Assembly: GCF_013315695.1 (NCBI RefSeq) | Contig: NZ_CP054353.1 | Strand: one strand, 5' to 3' | Origin: Escherichia coli | GTDB lineage: Bacteria > Pseudomonadota > Gammaproteobacteria > Enterobacterales > Enterobacteriaceae | DNA length: 64,000 bases | Shown: positions 747 to 19,772 of the stretch, one piece after another | Layout of the letters: each line of letters begins with the position of its first letter | Numbering within the stretch: position 1 is the stretch's first letter | Program-made: the position numbers and the translations under genes | Notes under the pieces: generated by a model | The model's database searches: none | Told to the model about the DNA's origin: nothing | The model's input: the letters and a program-made list of their open reading frames with translations, nothing else

Positions 747-780
747 CTAAAAAGAGGCCGGTGCTGCTACCGGTCTCAGC
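747..780 (-). terminator. rho-independent terminator at the end of the minus-strand transporter operon
   Basis: GC stem gagaccggt/accggcctc followed by a T-run on the minus strand, directly 3' of the regulator stop at 786. Confidence 0.5.
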
Positions 781-785
781 CCAGA

Positions 786-1673
786 TTAGCCATTCTTTCT
801 TCCCGTTTTCAGTCCTCGATGGAAATCGTTAATTCGCTTAATGGTTTTAACCGCACGCTGCGGCACTGCGGAAGCTACCGACCAGACAATCATTTCCAGA
901 CACAACAATACCGTACCATGTAGCGGCGTTTTCCCTTTTTCATCCCCGCGCGGAACATGAATCACGATACTGGCGTCTTTGCTAAAACGTGAATCCAGCG
1001 CGTTTGTCAGCAAAATAACAGGGATCCCCAGCCGCCTCGCCTCACGAAGCGTTGTCAGCCCTTCCCGGTGCGCAGATTTTTGCGCCATCATGATCAGAAC
1101 ATCGCCACGTTGAAGCGCGATCAGTTGCTCGGCAAGGCCAATACCCGTACGGTTTAGTGCCGTGGCAGGCAAACCTATGCGGTTGAATAGTCGTGCGGTA
1201 TAGTCCGCCAGGATACCCGAAGCGCCAATGCCAAAAATAGCGACTTGCCGTGCCTGCACCAACAACGCTACAGCTTGCGCAAGCGCGTGGCGGTTTTCAG
1301 GCTCTGACAGGACATTACAGGTATACAAATGCCCTTCAAGAACAAAGTCGATTGCGGTGTTAACATCGCTCGTCAAGTTACTCACCGTCGTAGACATCTT
1401 TTCGCTGGAACTAAGGGCTGGACCAAGCCACTGTTCCAGAGTGCGTTTCAGATCACGCAGCCCGGCAAACCCCAGGGCCTGTATAGCCCTGATAACAGTG
1501 GCATCGGAAGTGTTCAACGTGGCCGCAATTTCCATCGCCGTTTGCTCGAGTACCACTTCACGATGCTCATTAATGTAGCTGGCGACAGCTCTTAACCCAG
1601 GCGTTAACTGACTCGCGCGAGTGCGAAAACGCTCACCAAAAATATCAACCCGCGCTTTATCTTTCTGGATCAT
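786..1673 (-). CDS. RpiR/MurR-family transcriptional regulator (N-terminal HTH, C-terminal SIS sugar-phosphate-binding domain)
   Basis: 295 aa ORF; HTH region followed by SIS-like glycine-rich motif (VAIFGIGASG); start overlaps upstream gene stop by 4 nt. Confidence 0.8.
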   Translation of the reverse strand: MIQKDKARVDIFGERFRTRASQLTPGLRAVASYINEHREVVLEQTAMEIAATLNTSDATVIRAIQALGFAGLRDLKRTLEQWLGPALSSSEKMSTTVSNLTSDVNTAIDFVLEGHLYTCNVLSEPENRHALAQAVALLVQARQVAIFGIGASGILADYTARLFNRIGLPATALNRTGIGLAEQLIALQRGDVLIMMAQKSAHREGLTTLREARRLGIPVILLTNALDSRFSKDASIVIHVPRGDEKGKTPLHGTVLLCLEMIVWSVASAVPQRAVKTIKRINDFHRGLKTGRKNG

Positions 1674-2617
1674 TTAGCCTCCGGTAGAGGTCGCCCTGCA
1701 ATTTGTGATTGTATCTGCGCAGCCATCAGCCCCAGTGATGCAAAGGAGTTAGAAATTGCCTCTTCACGAGAAATCAGCACATAACGCCCGGAACGACAGG
1801 CAGTCAGAAACTGACACCATCCCGGCATGACTTTTTCCATTGCTGCCAGCTCATCCTGAGGTTTACCACCGGTGTCACCGCGCCAGGTTGCAAAAACAAA
1901 ATCGGCATCCAGTTCAGGTAAACGCTCCGCGCTCACATCCATTCGCCCACCTTCAGGAATGCTCTCAATCAGCGGCGGAAAACGAAAACCAGCATCGCGT
2001 AATACCCGCCCCAGCGAATGATAGCTATGCATCACATTAATTTTTCCCTGGTTTGCCTGAATCACCGATACCGTTATTTTTTGGCTGTCCAGCGTCGCCT
2101 TCAGCGCATTGATTTGTGCCTGATAGCGGCGTTCAAGTATCGCCAGCTGCGACTGCGTTCCTGTAAGTTCTGCCAGCTTGCGATAGATTTCTGGCGCGCC
2201 CCCTTTGAGATGATCAATGCTCACCGTGGGCGCAATTTTTTCAAGTTGTTCAATGGGCGTATTACGGGTCGGTTCTGTGATGATCAAGTCAGGCTTTGCC
2301 GCCACAATCGCTTCAATATCAATATCAGCGGTACCAATAAAGGCGATCGATGAATTATCAAAGTCGACACCTGTCAATAACGCGCCAGATCGAATGAAAT
2401 GGCTACCGTCAGGCCGAGTTCGCCCGTGGCTGGCGACAGGAGGTACACCGAGCTCAATCAGAGGAATAGTGATATCAAGATCGTGTAAAGAGACAATTCT
2501 CTTTGGATGAGCAGGAACAGTGACTTTGCGCCCTAAATCATCAGTAAATACCTGAACAGGTTCTGTTGCACGGGAAAAAAATGACAACAGTATCAGCAGA
2601 GAAAAAAATAAACGCAT
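1670..2617 (-). CDS. periplasmic substrate-binding protein of a siderophore/heme/B12-type (FecB-like) ABC importer
   Basis: ORF 1670..2680; start placed at internal Met preceding a signal peptide (MRLFFSLLILLSFFSRA). Confidence 0.75.
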   Translation of the reverse strand: MRLFFSLLILLSFFSRATEPVQVFTDDLGRKVTVPAHPKRIVSLHDLDITIPLIELGVPPVASHGRTRPDGSHFIRSGALLTGVDFDNSSIAFIGTADIDIEAIVAAKPDLIITEPTRNTPIEQLEKIAPTVSIDHLKGGAPEIYRKLAELTGTQSQLAILERRYQAQINALKATLDSQKITVSVIQANQGKINVMHSYHSLGRVLRDAGFRFPPLIESIPEGGRMDVSAERLPELDADFVFATWRGDTGGKPQDELAAMEKVMPGWCQFLTACRSGRYVLISREEAISNSFASLGLMAAQIQSQIAGRPLPEAK

Positions 2618-2627
2618 ATAACTCCCG

Positions 2628-3677
2628 TTAAAAACTGTTCCTGCGCTGCCAGAGCAGTAGCAAAAAAAATGGTCCACCAATCAGTGAGATAATGATTCCG
2701 GCAGGCAGTTGCAAAGGCAAAAAAGCCAAACGACCAATGCTATCCGCCAGAATAACTAACAACGCCCCCGATACCGCACTCCCCAGCAGTAATGTCGTCT
2801 GCCCGCCACGTAGAATAAAACGTGATATATGGGGTGCTATCAATCCGACAAAACCGATGTTACCAACACACGAAACGCAGACGGCTGTCAGGATTATGGG
2901 TGCGGCGACACGTAACAACGCCAGACGAGAACTATTCACCCCTAACCCGGTTGCAACCTGATGACCAAGCAGAGCGATATCCGCCGTCCTGGCGGTGAAC
3001 AGCAATAAAAGAGCGGCTGGCAACATCCAACAGGCTGAAATACCGACTAACATCCAGTTAGCTGCATGCAGGCTTCCCGATAACCACATCAATGCAGTTT
3101 GTACATCTCGAACATCTGCAGTGGTCATAAATACACCGATACCGGCGGCGAAAAACCAAGAAACACCAATACCAATCAGAACAAATCGCGGGCGGGAAAT
3201 ATCGCGCGCACAAAAAATCACGATTAAAGCCACCAACAGGCCACCAGCAAGACCAGCCACTGGACGCCAGAACACTCCCAGCATTGGAAACTGGAAAATC
3301 AGCCACAGCACAGCCACGCTACATCCTTCTTTGACGCCGATTAACCCAGGATCGGCAAGGCCGTTACGTGCAATGGATTGCATTGCGGCCCCTGCCATAC
3401 CTAACATGGCCCCGCATAGCAATGCCATGATGACTCTCGGCAAGCGAATATCCTGCACAATATAACGTGCGTCTGTGCTTACGTTTTCTGGAGCAAACAA
3501 CGCTCGTCCTACTTCCGATGCCGGAACAGAGAAAGAACCCTGCATCAGACCGAATATCAGTATTCCAACCGCAAACAGAAACAGCCCACCAAGCAACAGC
3601 AGATTTTTAGGGCGTACCAGTGTCGAAAACTTACCAACACGTAGTGGGCGTAGCCCGACGTTCATTATCCGACTCAT
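2628..3677 (-). CDS. ABC importer permease, FecCD family
   Basis: 349 aa polytopic membrane ORF with FecCD-like sequence. Confidence 0.8.
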   Translation of the reverse strand: MSRIMNVGLRPLRVGKFSTLVRPKNLLLLGGLFLFAVGILIFGLMQGSFSVPASEVGRALFAPENVSTDARYIVQDIRLPRVIMALLCGAMLGMAGAAMQSIARNGLADPGLIGVKEGCSVAVLWLIFQFPMLGVFWRPVAGLAGGLLVALIVIFCARDISRPRFVLIGIGVSWFFAAGIGVFMTTADVRDVQTALMWLSGSLHAANWMLVGISACWMLPAALLLLFTARTADIALLGHQVATGLGVNSSRLALLRVAAPIILTAVCVSCVGNIGFVGLIAPHISRFILRGGQTTLLLGSAVSGALLVILADSIGRLAFLPLQLPAGIIISLIGGPFFLLLLWQRRNSF

Positions 3678-4657
3678 TTGAACATCCTCGTCGCCATAAT
3701 GACAAAAACAGGCGCACCAACTAACGCCGTCATGACACCGGTCGCTAATTCATGGGGCGTGAAAAGCGTACGGGCAATAATATCTGCCAGTAATAACAAA
3801 AGTGCGCCGACACAAGCTGAAAGAGGGAGCAGAACGCGCAGATCCGCTGATACCAGGCGCCGGACAATCTGCGGTACTAGCAGGCCGACAAAACCAATGG
3901 GGCCAGCAATCGATACGGCTGCGCCACAGAGCAACGCGATCGCAAGCAGGGTGAATGTTCGCGTGCGGAGTACAGAGACGCCCAGCCCCTGCGCCATGCG
4001 ATCGCCCAGTGCCAACATGTTAAGGGAGGGTGCAAGGTAAAGGGCTAACACAAATCCCCCCAGAGAAAACCAGGCGGACGTACCCAGCGTCGCCCAATCC
4101 TGCCCCGCTAAATCACCTGCTAGCCATGTCCGCATCGCCAGCAGTGTTTGTTCGTCAAGAATCAGGATTGCAGCCGTTATTGAGGACACGAACGCCGATA
4201 GCGCCACGCCGCATAAAGTAACTTTCATTGGCGTTAACCCTGAACGCCCTGCGGAGGAAAGCAGCAATATCAACAGGAACAATAACGCGCCGCCCGTAGA
4301 TGCCAGCAGTGGGCGTCCAACCGGAAAGGCCAGCCCAAGCGCACTGGCAGCAACGACAGCAAGAGCGGCTCCGGCATTTAAGCCTAAAATATGTGGCTCC
4401 CCCAATGGGTTACGAATGACAGCCTGCAACAAAGCACCAGCAACTCCAAGAGAAGCACCGGTAAGCAATGCTGCCGCTAAACGCGGCAAACGGAGTCTTA
4501 CAATTACGTTGTGATCGAAGTTTTGCGGTTCAAAATGAAGAAATGCCTGCAATACCGTTTGTGGTGCAATAAATCGGGCACCAATCCCTGGATATACCAC
4601 GCATCCCACCAGCAGTAAGGCGAGGAAAATTACAGTAACCAGCCCTGTGCGCATCAT
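3674..4657 (-). CDS. ABC importer permease, FecCD family
   Basis: 327 aa polytopic membrane ORF; 4-nt overlaps with both neighbours. Confidence 0.8.
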   Translation of the reverse strand: MMRTGLVTVIFLALLLVGCVVYPGIGARFIAPQTVLQAFLHFEPQNFDHNVIVRLRLPRLAAALLTGASLGVAGALLQAVIRNPLGEPHILGLNAGAALAVVAASALGLAFPVGRPLLASTGGALLFLLILLLSSAGRSGLTPMKVTLCGVALSAFVSSITAAILILDEQTLLAMRTWLAGDLAGQDWATLGTSAWFSLGGFVLALYLAPSLNMLALGDRMAQGLGVSVLRTRTFTLLAIALLCGAAVSIAGPIGFVGLLVPQIVRRLVSADLRVLLPLSACVGALLLLLADIIARTLFTPHELATGVMTALVGAPVFVIMATRMFK

Positions 4658-5463
4658 ACTTTTTCTACACCACGAAACGGCATGAAGAACGGCTTTCCCG
4701 TCAGAGGATTTATTGATGCGTGAACATCAACGTCAAAGACAGCTTTTACCAGCTCAGGCGTGCAATGCTCCCCCTCATTCAACACACGCACCACTTTCCC
4801 CTGGCGTAAAAATATCAACGTATCGCCATAATTGACGGCAAAATTCAGATCATGCAACACCACGACGACTGTACGCCCGTGATGACGTGTTAAATCATGT
4901 AATAACTCAAGAATTTCAACCTGATAACGTAAATCAAGCCAGGTTGTGGGTTCATCCAGCAGGATATAAGGCGTCTTTTGCGCCAACACCATCGCAATCC
5001 AGCAACGCTGACGCTGCCCGCCAGAGAGTTTTTCAACAGGTAAATGTGCAAACTCCTGCGTACCCGTTAATTTCAGGGCCTCTTCTACCGCCAGCTCATC
5101 GGCGTCGCTCCATTGACGAATGAAATTCTGCCAGGGAAAACGCCCACGCGACACCAGTTCATAAACGGTTAAGCCCTCCGGCAATAATGGCGACTGCGGC
5201 AAGATCCCAAGTCTACGGGATAACGCTTTCGTTGGTTGCTCGTGAATCGCTTTGCCATCAAGCAATATCGAACCGCCCATGGGTTGCAAGATACGTGCAA
5301 TGGTGCTGAGCAACGTCGACTTTCCACAGCCGTTTGCCCCAACCAGAACGGTCATTTTTTCTGTGGGAACGGAGAAAGAAACACCATCAACAATGATCTT
5401 CTTGTGATACCCGGCAGAAACATTGTCGAGGATCAGCCCCTGCCCTTTTGCGTTATGTGCCAC
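4654..5463 (-). CDS. ABC importer ATP-binding protein (FecE-like)
   Basis: Walker A GANGCGKST, ABC signature LSGGQRQR, Walker B ILLDEPT. Confidence 0.85.
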   Translation of the reverse strand: MAHNAKGQGLILDNVSAGYHKKIIVDGVSFSVPTEKMTVLVGANGCGKSTLLSTIARILQPMGGSILLDGKAIHEQPTKALSRRLGILPQSPLLPEGLTVYELVSRGRFPWQNFIRQWSDADELAVEEALKLTGTQEFAHLPVEKLSGGQRQRCWIAMVLAQKTPYILLDEPTTWLDLRYQVEILELLHDLTRHHGRTVVVVLHDLNFAVNYGDTLIFLRQGKVVRVLNEGEHCTPELVKAVFDVDVHASINPLTGKPFFMPFRGVEKV

Positions 5464-5469
5464 GTGTAC

Positions 5470-5836
5470 GCCAACTTAATCAAAGACAAACAAAAATAAA
5501 ACTCATTCTCCTTTGAGAGTTTGACGCCACAAAATGTAGTAGTCAAGCAGTTAAAAGCCACACAAAAACAAGGTAAATAACAGGTAAAATATTTTTGCAC
5601 ATAAAAATAAAAACATTAAATATCAATAATTTAAAAGCAATCAAATTGTATAAACTTTTCATAAAAACACATGTAGCAATTTTTTGTTATTTCTCATTTA
5701 CTACTACATTACTGCGTGATTGAATGATTCTCAATTACATATCCGATGGCGAAATAACAAACGGATAGTGCTTAGTGAGCAATAAGAAACAATTTTCACT
5801 CGCGACAATCCGCGAGTTTTTGGGATAACAGACTAA
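5470..5836. promoter_or_regulatory. AT-rich divergent promoter region between the ABC operon and the receptor gene; weak Fur-box-like motif near 5717-5738
   Basis: about 370 bp of AT-rich sequence between divergent starts; tgattgaatgattctcaattac resembles the Fur consensus only partially. Confidence 0.3.
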
Positions 5837-7978
5837 ATGGCTATGTTCACACCTTCATTCTCAGGACTCAAAGGTCGGGCGCTCTTTTCACTGCTTTTTG
5901 CGGCACCGATGATTCATGCAACAGACTCTGTAACGACCAAAGATGGCGAAACAATCACTGTTACAGCAGATGCAAATACCGCAACTGAGGCAACCGATGG
6001 TTATCAACCTCTGAGCACCTCTACGGCGACATTAACCGATATGCCGATGCTGGATATCCCGCAGGTGGTCAATACGGTTAGCGATCAGGTTCTGGAAAAC
6101 CAGAATGCGACAACGCTGGATGAGGCGCTTTATAACGTCAGTAACGTGGTACAGACCAATACATTAGGCGGGACTCAGGATGCTTTTGTACGCCGTGGGT
6201 TTGGCGCAAACCGGGATGGCTCCATCATGACCAACGGCCTGCGAACTGTACTTCCTCGCAGTTTCAACGCCGCCACAGAACGTGTGGAAGTGCTAAAAGG
6301 TCCGGCCTCCACGCTGTATGGCATTCTCGATCCTGGTGGATTGATTAACGTCGTGACCAAGCGCCCGGAAAAAACATTCCATGGTTCTGTCTCAGCCACG
6401 TCCTCCAGTTTTGGCGGAGGCACTGGGCAACTTGATATCACAGGTCCCATTGAAGGCACTCAGCTGGCATACCGCCTGACGGGGGAAGTGCAGGATGAAG
6501 ATTACTGGCGAAACTTCGGTAAAGAGCGCAGTACATTTATTGCCCCGTCACTCACCTGGTTTGGTGATAATGCAACAGTAACCATGCTCTATTCCCATCG
6601 GGACTATAAAACTCCGTTCGATCGTGGAACGATTTTCGACCTTACGACGAAACAGCCCGTAAACGTTGATCGAAAAATACGTTTTGACGAACCGTTTAAT
6701 ATTACAGATGGTCAGTCCGATCTGGCGCAACTCAACGCAGAATATCATCTCAATAGCCAGTGGACAGCGCGCTTTGATTACAGCTACAGCCAGGATAAAT
6801 ACAGCGACAATCAGGCTCGCGTTACCGCGTATGATGCAACGACAGGAACGCTGACACGGCGTGTTGATGCAACTCAGGGATCTACCCAGCGTATGCATTC
6901 TACTCGTGCGGATCTGCAAGGGAATGCTGATATTGCTGGGTTCTATAATGAGATTCTGGGTGGGGTGTCATATGAATATTATGATCTTCTGCGCACAGAT
7001 ATGATTCGCTGTAAAAACGCTAAAGATTTCAATATCTACAACCCCGTTTATGGCAATACCAGCAAATGCACAACGGTTTCGGCGTCGGACAGTGATCAGA
7101 CGATCAAACAGGAGAGCTACTCAGCGTATGCACAGGACGCGCTCTATCTGACCGATAACTGGATTGCCGTCGCCGGGATCCGCTATCAGTATTACACGCA
7201 GTATGCGGGTAAAGGCCGTCCTTTTAATGTCAATACTGACAGCCGCGATGAACAATGGACGCCCAAACTGGGGTTAGTCTACAAACTGACGCCATCGGTA
7301 TCCTTATTTGCCAATTATTCGCAAACATTTATGCCGCAGTCGTCAATTGCCAGCTACATTGGCGATCTTCCACCGGAATCATCTAATGCTTACGAAGTCG
7401 GGGCAAAATTCGAGCTATTCGATGGTATCACCGCAGATATTGCGCTGTTTGATATCCATAAACGTAACGTGTTGTATACCGAAAGTATTGGTGATGAAAC
7501 CATTGCCAAAACGGCAGGCCGTGTTCGTTCAAGAGGGGTAGAAGTCGACCTTGCGGGAGCATTAACTGAAAACATTAATATCATTGCCAGCTACGGCTAT
7601 ACCGATGCTAAGGTTCTGGAGGATCCTGATTATGCAGGGAAACCATTGCCGAATGTTCCTCGTCATACCGGTTCGCTATTCCTGACTTATGACATTCATA
7701 ACATGCCTGGCAATAACACACTGACGTTTGGCGGTGGTGGACATGGCGTAAGCCGTCGTTCGGCAACCAATGGGGCTGACTATTATCTGCCAGGCTATTT
7801 CGTTGCCGATGCCTTCGCTGCATACAAAATGAAATTGCAGTATCCGGTCACACTGCAATTAAACGTCAAAAACCTGTTTGATAAAACGTATTACACCTCT
7901 TCCATCGCCACAAATAATCTGGGGAATCAGATTGGCGATCCGCGTGAAGTGCAATTCACGGTGAAAATGGAATTTTGA
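5837..7978 (+). CDS. TonB-dependent outer-membrane receptor
   Basis: 713 aa; signal peptide, TonB-box-like ETITVTA, plug and barrel motifs, C-terminal Phe. Confidence 0.85.
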   Translation: MAMFTPSFSGLKGRALFSLLFAAPMIHATDSVTTKDGETITVTADANTATEATDGYQPLSTSTATLTDMPMLDIPQVVNTVSDQVLENQNATTLDEALYNVSNVVQTNTLGGTQDAFVRRGFGANRDGSIMTNGLRTVLPRSFNAATERVEVLKGPASTLYGILDPGGLINVVTKRPEKTFHGSVSATSSSFGGGTGQLDITGPIEGTQLAYRLTGEVQDEDYWRNFGKERSTFIAPSLTWFGDNATVTMLYSHRDYKTPFDRGTIFDLTTKQPVNVDRKIRFDEPFNITDGQSDLAQLNAEYHLNSQWTARFDYSYSQDKYSDNQARVTAYDATTGTLTRRVDATQGSTQRMHSTRADLQGNADIAGFYNEILGGVSYEYYDLLRTDMIRCKNAKDFNIYNPVYGNTSKCTTVSASDSDQTIKQESYSAYAQDALYLTDNWIAVAGIRYQYYTQYAGKGRPFNVNTDSRDEQWTPKLGLVYKLTPSVSLFANYSQTFMPQSSIASYIGDLPPESSNAYEVGAKFELFDGITADIALFDIHKRNVLYTESIGDETIAKTAGRVRSRGVEVDLAGALTENINIIASYGYTDAKVLEDPDYAGKPLPNVPRHTGSLFLTYDIHNMPGNNTLTFGGGGHGVSRRSATNGADYYLPGYFVADAFAAYKMKLQYPVTLQLNVKNLFDKTYYTSSIATNNLGNQIGDPREVQFTVKMEF

Positions 7979-7980
7979 TC

Positions 7981-8022
7981 AAAAAAGCCCGGTATACACT
8001 TGTATACCGGGCTATTTTTTAT
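7981..8022. terminator. bidirectional rho-independent terminator shared by the receptor gene and parE
   Basis: stem agcccggtataca/tataccgggct flanked by A-run and T-run. Confidence 0.6.
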
Positions 8023-8041
8023 TCTTCTGGCGGGAGGATTA

Positions 8042-9937
<1,896 letters not shown>

Positions 9938-9962
9938 TTAAGTTAGCAATTCGAGTTGATCG

Positions 9963-10544
9963 TCAGAGATGGTGCAGACCAAGAAAATCGACGATCGGGT
10001 TGAAATAATCTTCGAAGCCCGTGAATGCGTGGTTGCCGCCTTCTATGACAGTCTGGCGGCAGGAAGCGTAGTACGCCACCGCCTGGCGGTAATCCAGCAC
10101 TTCATCTCCCGTCTGTTGCAGCAGCCAGATCAAATCCGGCGCTTCCAGCGGGTCAATCTGCATGACTTTGAGATCGTAAATATGGCGTGACTCTAGCACA
10201 TATTGCTGCCCGGTGTAGGGGTTCTCGTTCTGACCGAGATAGTCCGTCAGCAGTTCAAACGGGCGCACCGCCGGGTTGACCACCACTGCGGGCAGCATAA
10301 AACATTGCGACAACCAGGTGGCGTAATATCCCCCCAGTGACGAACCGACAATACCCAGCGAATCGCCGCCATGTTCCAGGACAATGGATTCCAGCAGTTC
10401 TGCCGCGTCAGAAGGATACGGCGGCAACTGCGGAATGATCATCTCTACGTCAGGGTGATGTTCCGCCAACCAGTTTTTTAACAAGCTCGCTTTTGCAGAG
10501 CGCGGCGAGCTGTTGAAACCGTGTAAATAAAGAAGCGTAGACAT
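9963..10544 (-). CDS. yqiA: esterase YqiA
   Basis: 193 aa ORF, sequence recognised. Confidence 0.85.
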
Positions 10545-16603: not shown

Positions 16604-18400
16604 ATGTTTGATAAATATAGAAAAACACTCGTAGCCGGAACTGTGGCGATAACCCTGGGTTTGTCAGCATCGGGGGTGATGGCTGCGGGTTTTAAACCAG
16701 CGCCGCCTGCCGGGCAACTGGGTGCGGTCATTGTCGATCCCTACGGCAATGCACCACTGACCGCTTTGGTTAACTTAGATAGCCATGTTATTTCTGACGT
16801 CAAAGTTACCGTCCATGGGAAGGGCGAAAAAGGCGTAGAAATCAGCTATCCCGTGGGTCAGGAATCACTAAAAACTTACGATGGTGTACCGATTTTTGGT
16901 CTTTATCAGAAATTTGCTAACAAAGTGACCGTTGAGTGGAAAGAAAACGGCAAGGTCATGAAAGATGATTATGTGGTGCACACTTCGGCCATCGTCAACA
17001 ATTACATGGATAACCGCTCCATCTCCGACCTACAGCAAACCAAAGTCGTTAAAGTCGCGCCAGGTTTTGAAGATCGCCTCTATCTGGTTAATACCCACAC
17101 CTTTACCGCCCAAGGTTCCGATCTCCACTGGCATGGTGAGAAAGATAAAAATGCCGGTATCCTTGATGCGGGTCCGGCAACTGGCGCACTCCCTTTTGAT
17201 ATCGCGCCCTTTACTTTCATCGTCGATACCGAAGGTGAATACCGCTGGTGGCTGGATCAAGACACTTTCTACGATGGTCGTGACCGCGATATCAACAAGC
17301 GTGGTTATCTGATGGGTATCCGCGAAACGCCACGCGGCACCTTTACCGCTGTACAAGGTCAGCACTGGTACGAGTTCGACATGATGGGGCAGGTGCTCGA
17401 AGATCACAAACTACCGCGCGGATTTGCTGACGCTACTCATGAATCCATTGAGACGCCAAATGGCACAGTATTGTTGCGCGTAGGTAAGAGCAATTACCGT
17501 CGCGATGACGGCGTACACGTCACCACCATTCGTGACCATATCCTCGAAGTCGATAAATCTGGTCGCGTTGTAGATGTATGGGATCTGACGAAGATCCTCG
17601 ATCCGAAACGCGATGCACTGCTCGGCGCGCTGGATGCAGGTGCAGTTTGCGTTAACGTTGACCTTGCCCATGCAGGACAACAGGCAAAACTGGAACCAGA
17701 TACACCGTTCGGCGACGCTCTGGGTGTAGGGCCAGGCCGTAACTGGGCGCACGTTAATTCCATCGCTTATGACGCAAAAGATGACTCAATTATTCTCTCT
17801 TCTCGTCACCAGGGTGTTGTGAAGATTGGTCGTGATAAGCAAGTGAAATGGATCCTTGCACCCTCTAAAGGTTGGGAAAAACCGCTGGCCAGCAAGCTGC
17901 TGAAACCGGTTGATGCTAACGGTAAGCCAATTACCTGTAACGAAAATGGCCTGTGCGAAAACTCAGACTTCGACTTTACCTACACCCAGCATACCGCCTG
18001 GATTTCCAGCAAAGGAACGCTCACCATTTTTGATAATGGCGATGGTCGTCATCTGGAACAACCTGCCTTACCAACCATGAAATATTCCCGCTTTGTGGAA
18101 TATAAGATTGATGAGAAGAAAGGCACCGTTCAGCAAGTGTGGGAATACGGTAAAGAACGTGGCTACGATTTCTATAGCCCAATCACCTCCATCATTGAAT
18201 ATCAAGCCGACCGTAACACCATGTTTGGCTTCGGTGGTTCTATTCATTTGTTCGATGTCGGGCAGCCAACCGTCGGTAAGTTGAACGAAATCGATTACAA
18301 AACCAAAGAAGTGAAAGTGGAAATCGACGTGCTGTCAGATAAACCCAATCAGACTCACTATCGTGCATTGTTAGTCCGTCCACAACAGATGTTCAAATAA
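16604..18400 (+). CDS. assT: periplasmic arylsulfate sulfotransferase
   Basis: 598 aa, signal peptide, sequence recognised as ASST as described in uropathogenic E. coli. Confidence 0.8.
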   Translation: MFDKYRKTLVAGTVAITLGLSASGVMAAGFKPAPPAGQLGAVIVDPYGNAPLTALVNLDSHVISDVKVTVHGKGEKGVEISYPVGQESLKTYDGVPIFGLYQKFANKVTVEWKENGKVMKDDYVVHTSAIVNNYMDNRSISDLQQTKVVKVAPGFEDRLYLVNTHTFTAQGSDLHWHGEKDKNAGILDAGPATGALPFDIAPFTFIVDTEGEYRWWLDQDTFYDGRDRDINKRGYLMGIRETPRGTFTAVQGQHWYEFDMMGQVLEDHKLPRGFADATHESIETPNGTVLLRVGKSNYRRDDGVHVTTIRDHILEVDKSGRVVDVWDLTKILDPKRDALLGALDAGAVCVNVDLAHAGQQAKLEPDTPFGDALGVGPGRNWAHVNSIAYDAKDDSIILSSRHQGVVKIGRDKQVKWILAPSKGWEKPLASKLLKPVDANGKPITCNENGLCENSDFDFTYTQHTAWISSKGTLTIFDNGDGRHLEQPALPTMKYSRFVEYKIDEKKGTVQQVWEYGKERGYDFYSPITSIIEYQADRNTMFGFGGSIHLFDVGQPTVGKLNEIDYKTKEVKVEIDVLSDKPNQTHYRALLVRPQQMFK

Positions 18401-18417
18401 TTAAGAAGGGAATAAAA

Positions 18418-19086
18418 ATGTCGAAATTAGGGATCTCATCACTATTTAAAAGCATACTGCTTACTGCAGCTTTGGCTGTTTCATTTACCGCCTCTGCATT
18501 TACCGAAGGCACGGATTACATGGTTCTGGAAAAACCTATTCCGAATGCAGACAAAACGCTGATTAAGGTATTCAGCTACGCCTGCCCGTTCTGTTACAAG
18601 TACGACAAAGCGGTTACCGGTCCGGTATCGGAAAAAGTGAAAGATATCGTTGCTTTCACGCCGTTCCATCTGGAAACCAAAGGTGAATACGGCAAACAAG
18701 CAAGCGAAGTCTTTGCGGTCTTGATCAATAAAGATAAAGCAGCAGGCATTTCCTTATTTGATGCTAACTCTCAGTTTAAGAAAGCCAAGTTTGCCTACTA
18801 CGTGGCTTATCACGACAAAAAAGAACGCTGGTCTGACGGTAAAGATCCGGCTGCTTTTATCAAAACCGGTCTGGATGCCGCAGGTATGAGTCAGGCGGAT
18901 TTTGAAGCGGCACTGAAAGAACCAGCGGTTCAAGAAACACTGGAAAAATGGAAAGCCTCTTATGATGTCGCCAAAATCCAGGGGGTTCCAGCCTATGTCG
19001 TTAATGGTAAGTACTTGATCTACACCAAGAGCATCAAATCCATCGACGCGATGGCAGACCTTATCCGTGAGTTAGCAAGCAAATAA
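18418..19086 (+). CDS. dsbL: periplasmic thiol:disulfide oxidoreductase DsbL (DsbA paralogue)
   Basis: 222 aa, signal peptide, CPFC active-site motif. Confidence 0.8.
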
Positions 19087-19100
19087 CAGGGAAACAGGCT

Positions 19101-19772
19101 ATGGGTATTAAGGGAATGTGGAAAGATCTTCGCACATCACCAGTTGACACACTGGTCAGATGGCAGGAGCAACGCTTGTTGTGGTTGTTAATGGCCGTTG
19201 CGATGGGCGCGTTAATTATCCTGGCGCACTCTTTCTTCCAGATCTATCTCTACATGGCACCCTGTGAGCAATGTGTATACATTCGCTACGCCATGTTTGT
19301 GATGGTTATTGGAGGATTGGTTGCAGCGATCAACCCAAAGAACATCATCCTAAAGCTAATTGGCTGCGTGATGGCATTTTACGGCAGCATTTTGGGACTG
19401 AAGTTTTCGCTCAAACTGAACGATATCCACCATGCAGTACATAATCCGGATCCCGATTCACTGTTTGGCGTACAGGGTTGCTCTACCGATCCAACTTTTC
19501 CCTTTAACCTGCCGCTGGCACAGTGGGCACCAAATTGGTTCAAGCCTACCGGGGATTGTGGCTATGACGCACCAATCGTTCCTGATGGCGTCACACTGAG
19601 CAGCACGCAACAGTGGTTTGTGGAAATGTATCAGCAATCTGAAGGCTGGTATCTGCTACCACCATGGCATTTTATGAATATGGCTCAGGCTTGTATGCTG
19701 GCTTTTGGTATGTGTCTGGTGCTGCTGGTCATTATGAGTGGCGCATGGGCGCTTAAAATCATCAGAGGCTAA
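19101..19772 (+). CDS. dsbI: membrane disulfide oxidoreductase DsbI (DsbB paralogue)
   Basis: 223 aa polytopic protein with CxxC (CEQC) and a second Cys pair. Confidence 0.8.

Follow-up and report, generated by a model that had tools for sequence, protein, structure and literature searches.

FitR, the RpiR-type local repressor of the Escherichia coli fit iron-uptake islet: candidate operator boxes and a non-canonical SIS pocket

The fit islet and the position of fitR

The window analysed in this study is a stretch of 64,000 nucleotides of Escherichia coli DNA (contig NZ_CP054353.1). Its positions 786-7978 are the fit iron-uptake islet, which consists of fitA and the divergently transcribed genes fitB-fitC-fitD-fitE-fitR. 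Our subject is the last of these genes, fitR (786..1673, minus strand), which codes for a 295-residue regulator of the RpiR/MurR family, as indicated by its open reading frame, Pfam matches and an 888-nt RefSeq coding sequence labelled 'MurR/RpiR family transcriptional regulator'. The fit system was reportedly first defined by Ouyang and Isaacson in Infect Immun in 2006. In a later account (Ouyang & Isaacson, Open Microbiol J 2008, PMC2593036), fitA encodes the receptor, fitB the ATPase, fitC and fitD the permeases and fitE the binding protein, and FitR is described as a protein with a helix-turn-helix (HTH) and a SIS domain, encoded last in the operon. The gene calls, family hits and RefSeq annotation of the six genes in the window agree with this account in gene order and products; locus and divergent promoter region are the same, and there is no sequence difference. 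The regulator gene and its regulatory role are already published; the finding is real, but it is not new. The present analysis goes beyond the fit papers in three respects: it proposes a candidate operator, compares the SIS pocket with canonical ones, and shows where else the cassette occurs.

The divergent gene fitA (5837..7978, plus strand) encodes a TonB-dependent siderophore receptor, which scores 371.7 bits against the TIGR01783 model (cut-off 223.5) and has FetA, FoxA and FhuA as its closest relatives of solved structure, at approximately 150-170 bits. On the minus strand, open reading frames and family hits define a FecE-like ATP-binding cassette (ABC) ATPase, fitB (4654..5463), and two FecCD-family permeases, fitC (3674..4657) and fitD (2628..3677); permeases and ATPase match the FecC, FecD and FecE models. 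The RefSeq start of fitD lies 12 nt downstream of the start of the longest open reading frame (window 3665-3677), so that the 4-nt overlap at the permease-permease junction depends on the start codon chosen. The periplasmic protein FitE (1670..2617, minus strand, RefSeq start) belongs to Peripla_BP_2 and matches siderophore-binding proteins; its residues 19-315 are the protein of PDB entries 3BE5/3BE6 (E=2e-195), and 3BE6 is labelled Ec-FitE in PMC10553834. The spacer between fitA and fitB is AT-rich and 373 bp long. At the other end of the operon, 12 nt past the fitR stop, a terminator-like hairpin CCGGTAGCAGCACCGG with a T-rich tract (758..773, minus strand) is common to fitR and the convergent gene ygiN.

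The junction between fitE and fitR is tight. Read directly from the sequence, the plus strand has tcat at 1670-1673, i.e., ATGA on the coding strand, in which the fitR ATG (1673..1671) overlaps the fitE TGA (1672..1670), and a Shine-Dalgarno sequence GGAGG (1682..1678) is found 4 nt upstream of the fitR ATG. The sequence-only reading of this DNA had made the regulator the last gene of the importer operon, with its start overlapping the stop of the binding-protein gene, and every detail of that description is borne out. The close coupling to the importer operon extends beyond this strain, as 28 of 59 orthologous loci of other species have the same 4-nt overlap and nearly all of the remaining ones have gaps of at most 17 nt. 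Three cassettes of approximately 60 (L003, positions 7007-10004, and also L049 and L053) have three extra genes, about 3.07 kb, inserted between the binding-protein gene and fitR. One of these genes codes for a PepSY_TM membrane protein, and two for PstS-family proteins resembling phosphate-binding proteins (111 bits to PDB 4PQJ). We considered the latter as a possible pointer to a phosphate-bearing cargo, but no more than these three cassettes have them. The PepSY_TM family may include ferric-siderophore reductases.

By gene calls and RefSeq annotation, the islet is flanked by mdaB and ygiN on one side and by parE on the other, which places the insertion between ygiN and parE. The 7.4-kb stretch is 100% identical at the DNA level to sequences in E. 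coli chromosomes. Of 5426 complete E. coli genomes, 1870 contain 80% or more of this stretch and the remainder match the flanks only; the islet is therefore a variable chromosomal element.

Two repressors at the fit promoters

FitR is a local autorepressor of fitA and fitBCDER, which binds their shared control region (PMC2593036). In that work, overexpression of FitR reduced fitB-lacZ and fitA-lacZ expression about 3-fold, knockout of fitR derepressed the fit promoters 2- to 5-fold, complementation restored repression, and purified FitR shifted a 347-bp fragment of the fitA-fitB intergenic region, with competition by cold probe. The expectation, stated from the sequence, that the regulator binds and controls the promoters of its own cluster had thus been answered positively by published electrophoretic mobility shift assays, by reporters in the knockout and by complementation. 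Our literature searches for later FitR work, or for RpiR-type regulators of siderophore uptake, returned nothing relevant.

The same reading had contrasted the RpiR-type protein with the Fur, AraC-type or ECF-sigma regulators that normally govern such importers, but a replacement of Fur by FitR is not supported. A fur mutant is derepressed 23-fold independently of FitR, the effects of FitR and Fur are additive, and iron starvation still induces fit in a fitR mutant (PMC2593036); moreover, conserved Fur-like boxes flank both promoters. One is the conserved block TGATTGAATGATTCTCAATTACAT over the -10 region of fitA (5717..5740, plus strand), which matches 12 of the 19 positions of the Fur consensus. 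The other, GAGAATGAGTTTTATTTTT, is located downstream of the fitB promoter (5492..5510, minus strand), matches at 12 positions on the minus and 13 on the plus strand, and takes the form GAGAATGAGwTTTATTTTT across genera. Scoring was done with the 19-bp consensus GATAATGATAATCATTATC, and no Fur box was found anywhere in the window at the strict threshold of at most 3 mismatches. The best Fur-like sites have 12-13 matches of 19, a level at which about 1.9 sites are expected in shuffled sequence; these two are invariant across genera, and we assign them, as putative sites, to Fur.

Distribution of FitR and its association with siderophore receptors

We surveyed the 80 closest species-level loci with FitR orthologues, which are 66-99% identical to FitR. 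They come from Escherichia, Salmonella, Enterobacter, Lelliottia, Kosakonia, Citrobacter, Klebsiella and Raoultella, and also from Kluyvera, Phytobacter, Erwinia, Pantoea, Tatumella, Serratia, Shimwellia and Sodalis. In 57 of these loci the Fit ABC genes are directly upstream of the regulator. Twenty more have no ABC genes, and in them the regulator is divergent from another TonB-dependent siderophore receptor, only 35-38% identical to FitA; the remaining three loci lack this information, two of them on account of truncated DNA. This second arrangement occurs in Pantoea, Serratia and some Erwinia and Enterobacter, with FitR orthologues of 66-73% identity (loci L047, L056, L059, L065, L067, L068, L070-L073, L076, L078, L080-L084, L087, L090 and L092), and has a regular layout, the regulator at approximately 7001-7870 and the receptor at approximately 4400-6560 on the opposite strand. 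In one of these loci, from Pantoea (L076), a gene for a ferrichrome/ferrioxamine-type binding protein follows the regulator.

Judged by gene neighbourhood, the FitR clade goes together with siderophore receptors, and does so in two arrangements that are independent of each other. The genes that flank the cassette vary by genus, and no conserved sugar-metabolism gene was found beside it across the 80 loci. Around four more distant relatives of FitR (39-52% identity) there are neither FecCD transporters nor sugar genes nearby, two of these contigs being too short for a judgement, and the surroundings offer no hint of the ligand.

Elsewhere in the window, nfeF and nfeR, which code for an NADPH-dependent ferric-chelate reductase and its regulator, are found at approximately 47485-49160, some 40 kb from fit; these are ordinary core genes that likewise act on ferric chelates. 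The genes assT-dsbL-dsbI, for an arylsulfate sulfotransferase with its own disulfide-bond pair, lie at approximately 16604-19772, between ygiC and ygiD, according to the annotation of a genome with 4 differences from the window in 50 kb.

A candidate FitR operator over both -35 elements

The fitA-fitB intergenic region harbours two copies of a 12-bp box, TT(G/T)ACTACTACA, which overlaps the -35 elements of both promoters and is probably the operator of FitR. Box B, TTGACTACTACA (5535..5546, minus strand), is made of TTGACT, the -35 hexamer at the fitB promoter, followed by ACTACA, and box A, TTTACTACTACA (5697..5708, plus strand), of the -35-like hexamer TTTACT of the fitA promoter followed by the same ACTACA. 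In both boxes the first six bases are the -35 hexamer, and a -10-like hexamer is found 17 bp further on. The two candidate sites are inverted relative to each other and 165 bp apart.

Comparative evidence for this assignment is of several kinds. When the intergenic regions were aligned for five and then for seven genera, the boxes were invariant in 7 of 7 genera, in a region with mean column identity of 57%. In the window, the two boxes contain the sole copies of the 9-mer TGTAGTAGT/ACTACTACA. Counts were made on the 53 cassettes for which the intergenic region was obtained: the exact pair of boxes is present in 51 of them and the other two have one mismatch, while outside intergenic regions there is one match in 789 kb, compared with about 6 expected by chance. 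The second arrangement, where a FitR-like gene faces a TonB-dependent receptor other than FitA, has the box in each of its 20 loci, all of which carry TGTAGTAGTAAA in the intergenic region. Finally, it adjoins regulator genes whose products are only 39-44% identical to FitR, at three of the four loci of distant relatives, on the unrelated metagenomic contigs L006, L007 and L008. In these contigs the box has the form TTGACTACTAC(A/C) and occupies positions 695-712 and 1861-1875 of L007, 655-670 of L006 and 1391-1405 of L008; the GC-rich L007 has two copies of TTGACTACTACA, both no more than 300 bp away from the regulator gene.

Two observations may be added on these contigs. One of the copies in L007 is located just upstream of a gene of the Rrf2 family. 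In L006, a Fur-box-like sequence, GGTAATGAGATTCATTTAC, with 14 of 19 matches, comes after the box.

The second half of the box has a known counterpart. For RccR, an RpiR-family regulator, the half-site is TGTAGT/ACTACA, as established by chromatin immunoprecipitation with sequencing, surface plasmon resonance and footprinting (PMC5489143), and the Fit boxes contain this very hexamer. The sites of RccR, however, are palindromes of 15 or 28 bp, while Fit has a single strong half-site at each of two promoters, approximately 165 bp apart. In E. coli the sequence TGTAGC (5672-5677) is found upstream of box A's ACTACA (5703-5708), at a distance of 25 bp, and forms with it a long pseudo-palindrome of 31 bp from centre to centre. 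Its conservation in the five-genus alignment is limited to Escherichia and Kosakonia, and it may serve as a weak partner half-site. We also considered looping between the two boxes, which the spacing (164-189 bp, without helical phasing) does not support.

If the box is assigned to FitR and the two Fur-like blocks to Fur, the layout of the region would fit the published picture of two independent repressors, both acting at both promoters.

FitR fold and the SIS pocket

FitR was recognised from sequence as an RpiR-type protein with a SIS domain, and the Pfam search proposed as a check on this finds both domains: HTH_6 (PF01418, E=1.1e-9) in residues 15-81, the DNA-binding domain (1431..1631, minus strand), and SIS (PF01380, E=1.3e-13) in residues 138-247, the effector domain (933..1262, minus strand). 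Positions S56, D57, A58, T59 and R62 of HTH_6 are invariant or nearly so across the subfamily. An AlphaFold2 model of FitR, built from 47 relatives, has a mean predicted local distance difference test score (pLDDT) of 91.5, and its HTH region is helical and modelled with high confidence. The best structural matches in Foldseek are full-length RccR (8K3B/8JU9) and NanR (4IVN), and the SIS domain of an RpiR protein, 3SHO; the probability is 1.00 for RccR, NanR, MurR and 3sho, with a template modelling (TM) score of 0.83 when normalised to 3sho.

RccR is the closest solved relative of FitR both by sequence (59 bits, identity 22-23%) and by fold. RccR and HexR of Pseudomonas, which belong to the RpiR family and respond to KDPG (2-keto-3-deoxy-6-phosphogluconate), have the same domain order as FitR, but RccR governs carbon metabolism and FitR governs iron uptake. 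The HTH_6 and SIS fold is likewise common to FitR and to NanR of Vibrio vulnificus and S. pneumoniae, and MurR and AlsR/RpiR of E. coli. NanR, MurR and other solved members bind sugar 6-phosphates, according to the titles of the structure entries. Unlike the phosphosugar regulators NanR, MurR and AlsR, FitR has no link to a sugar catabolic operon. Nor does it score as one of them: against the NCBIfam models for MurR, MurR/RpiR and AlsR, FitR obtains 27-73 bits, below cut-offs of 355-408, and against the named phosphosugar models for AlsR, MurR, HexR and the glucokinase-fused type, the best scores are 79.6, 72.9, 66.2 and 52 bits, with cut-offs of 920, 378, 400 and 296, respectively.

The pocket itself can be compared with that of RccR, where S139, S183, S185 and S188 hold the phosphate of KDPG and a quadruple alanine mutant no longer responds to KDPG (PMC11014249). 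In the HMMER alignment, FitR keeps one of these four serines, S152, which corresponds to S139, and has A197, K199 and H202 in place of the others; NanR has a serine at the first of these positions. With its phosphate serines mostly replaced, the phosphosugar site of FitR is non-canonical. The first SIS loop, G148-I-G-A-S152 (1218..1232, minus strand, from the alignment to RccR), is retained, and reads FGIGAS or FGINAS in 79 of the 80 species. The second loop, A197-Q-K-S-A-H202 (1068..1085, minus strand; read on DNA as GCG CAA AAA TCT GCG CAC), takes the place of the canonical S-x-S-G-x-S/T, which is SQSGRS in RccR and SSSGST in NanR. Where readable, it has the form [AG]Q[KQN]S[AP]H[RK]E in 78 of the 80 orthologues. 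The canonical loop was found in none of the 80 sequences of the FitR clade and in none of 47 representatives of the subfamily; in 46 relatives sampled down to 26% identity the loop is AYGxxYxE-like. The replacement loop is near-invariant, which suggests a functional site, and the residues R165, K199, H202, R203 and R242 make the FitR pocket basic.

Proposed mechanism and alternatives

The observations can be joined into one mechanism. FitR shares its transcript with the transporter, and co-transcription together with the ATGA overlap would couple its synthesis to that of the Fit proteins. It would bind the TT(G/T)ACTACTACA boxes over both -35 elements and so compete with RNA polymerase, as the comparative evidence indicates, while Fur would sit on boxes of its own, at the -10 regions or downstream of them. 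The SIS pocket might bind a small anionic effector, upon which FitR would leave the DNA. Full expression of fit would then need both low iron, to remove Fur, and the effector, to remove FitR. Taken together, an account that joins the identity of the fit locus, autorepression by FitR, an operator in the -35 boxes and release by an effector of the SIS domain is, in our judgement, probable.

Dedicated local regulators on top of Fur, as FitR is, are familiar from FecIR-type extracytoplasmic function (ECF) sigma systems and from the AraC-type regulators PchR, YbtA and AlcR, and those of AraC type respond, in the cytoplasm, to the ferri-siderophore that has been taken up; we propose a comparable role for FitR. 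These regulators are activators or sigma/anti-sigma pairs of unrelated families, whereas FitR is a repressor. As to the effector of FitR, an imported siderophore or its product appears more likely than a classical phosphosugar, because most of the serine cradle has given way to other residues and the only linkage seen for the clade is with siderophore receptors and transporters. The substrate of Fit was still called unknown in 2018 and in 2022, with enterobactin excluded (PMC5907654, PMC9409007).

Several points weigh against this account. The operator has been assigned by comparison, and its boxes contain the -35 hexamers, so that their conservation is in part conservation of promoters. No conserved partner half-site was found within 25 bp of either box; a dimer would thus need an unusual target with a single half-site, or a long-range pairing of boxes, the spacing of which is variable (164-189 bp) and not helically phased. 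These facts would suit a reading in which the boxes are promoter elements or sites of some other factor, with FitR bound at another place in the intergenic region, such as the block that we have labelled as a Fur site, since this 21-bp block has only 12 of 19 matches to the Fur consensus and contains TGTAAT. Yet the 12-mer stands beside FitR-like genes in L006, L008 and, in two copies, the GC-rich L007, which promoter conservation cannot explain; it follows the regulator into the second arrangement, with a different receptor, in every one of the 20 loci, and it carries the half-site proven for RccR. We therefore regard this reading as quite unlikely. The points that bear on the pocket are of another kind. 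Repression by FitR is modest, 2- to 5-fold, and was measured in plain LB (lysogeny broth) without additions, with no inducer reported, so that FitR might act without a ligand (PMC2593036). It could, then, be a plain negative autoregulator that caps or steadies fit expression once Fur repression is lifted, with the SIS domain serving oligomerisation only, as the degenerate state of the canonical ligand cradle would allow; in RccR, SIS domains do form dimer and tetramer interfaces (PMC11014249). The replacement loop and the VPRG...LHG motif, on the other side, are strongly conserved in 80 species and in part throughout the subfamily, which argues for a site under selection, not a decayed one. 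Regulators of a single xenosiderophore importer, such as those of the FecIR, PchR and YbtA types, usually respond to its substrate, and this too we count against a FitR without effector, which seems to us unlikely, if somewhat less so than a binding site outside the boxes.

The remaining alternative is the one advanced by the sequence-only reading, in which the SIS domain senses a phosphosugar or amino-sugar phosphate and either the Fit cargo is a sugar-containing, perhaps glycosylated, siderophore or a non-iron substrate, or iron uptake is wired into the sugar-phosphate status of the cell. It starts from a genuine HTH_6 and SIS fold, and all solved ligand-bound regulators of RpiR type take phosphosugars, namely KDPG and the 6-phosphates of N-acetylmannosamine, N-acetylmuramic acid and N-acetylglucosamine (structures, PMC11014249). 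The GIGAS loop with S152 is kept, and the basic residues R165, K199, H202, R203 and R242 could still hold the phosphate of a phosphorylated ligand, which is a further point against our preferred account. But three of the four serines are replaced, by A197, K199 and H202, in a position where loss of the serines abolishes the KDPG response of RccR; the S-x-S-G-x-S/T loop is missing from the whole subfamily down to 26% identity; no sugar kinase, phosphotransferase system or catabolic gene is conserved by the cassette in 80 species; and FitR is far under the cut-off of every named model of a phosphosugar regulator. FitA and FitE, for their part, look like receptors and binding proteins for siderophores, of the hydroxamate type and others, and not like parts of sugar systems. 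Neither the ligand-site residues nor the genomic context support the step from a SIS domain to a sugar or amino-sugar cargo, or the proposed wiring of transport to sugar phosphates, and of all the alternatives we find this one the most improbable.

Implications

We tentatively propose, as a possibility that goes further than the mechanism above and is considerably less certain, that FitR and its relatives constitute a distinct subfamily of RpiR proteins, in which a pocket without the phosphosugar cradle would sense an anionic ligand that is not a phosphosugar, namely the siderophore taken up by the cognate receptor and transporter or an intracellular product of it, and which would act through the -35-occluding operator TT(G/T)ACTACTACA. 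If this is true, SIS domains would gain a new class of ligands, and FitR would stand for a new type of siderophore sensor in the cytoplasm. Enrichment of the fit genes has been described for extraintestinal and for adherent-invasive E. coli (PMC9409007). The islet is present in about a third of complete E. coli genomes and in dozens of other species of Enterobacterales, and the inducer of FitR, once found, would probably reveal the Fit siderophore as well.

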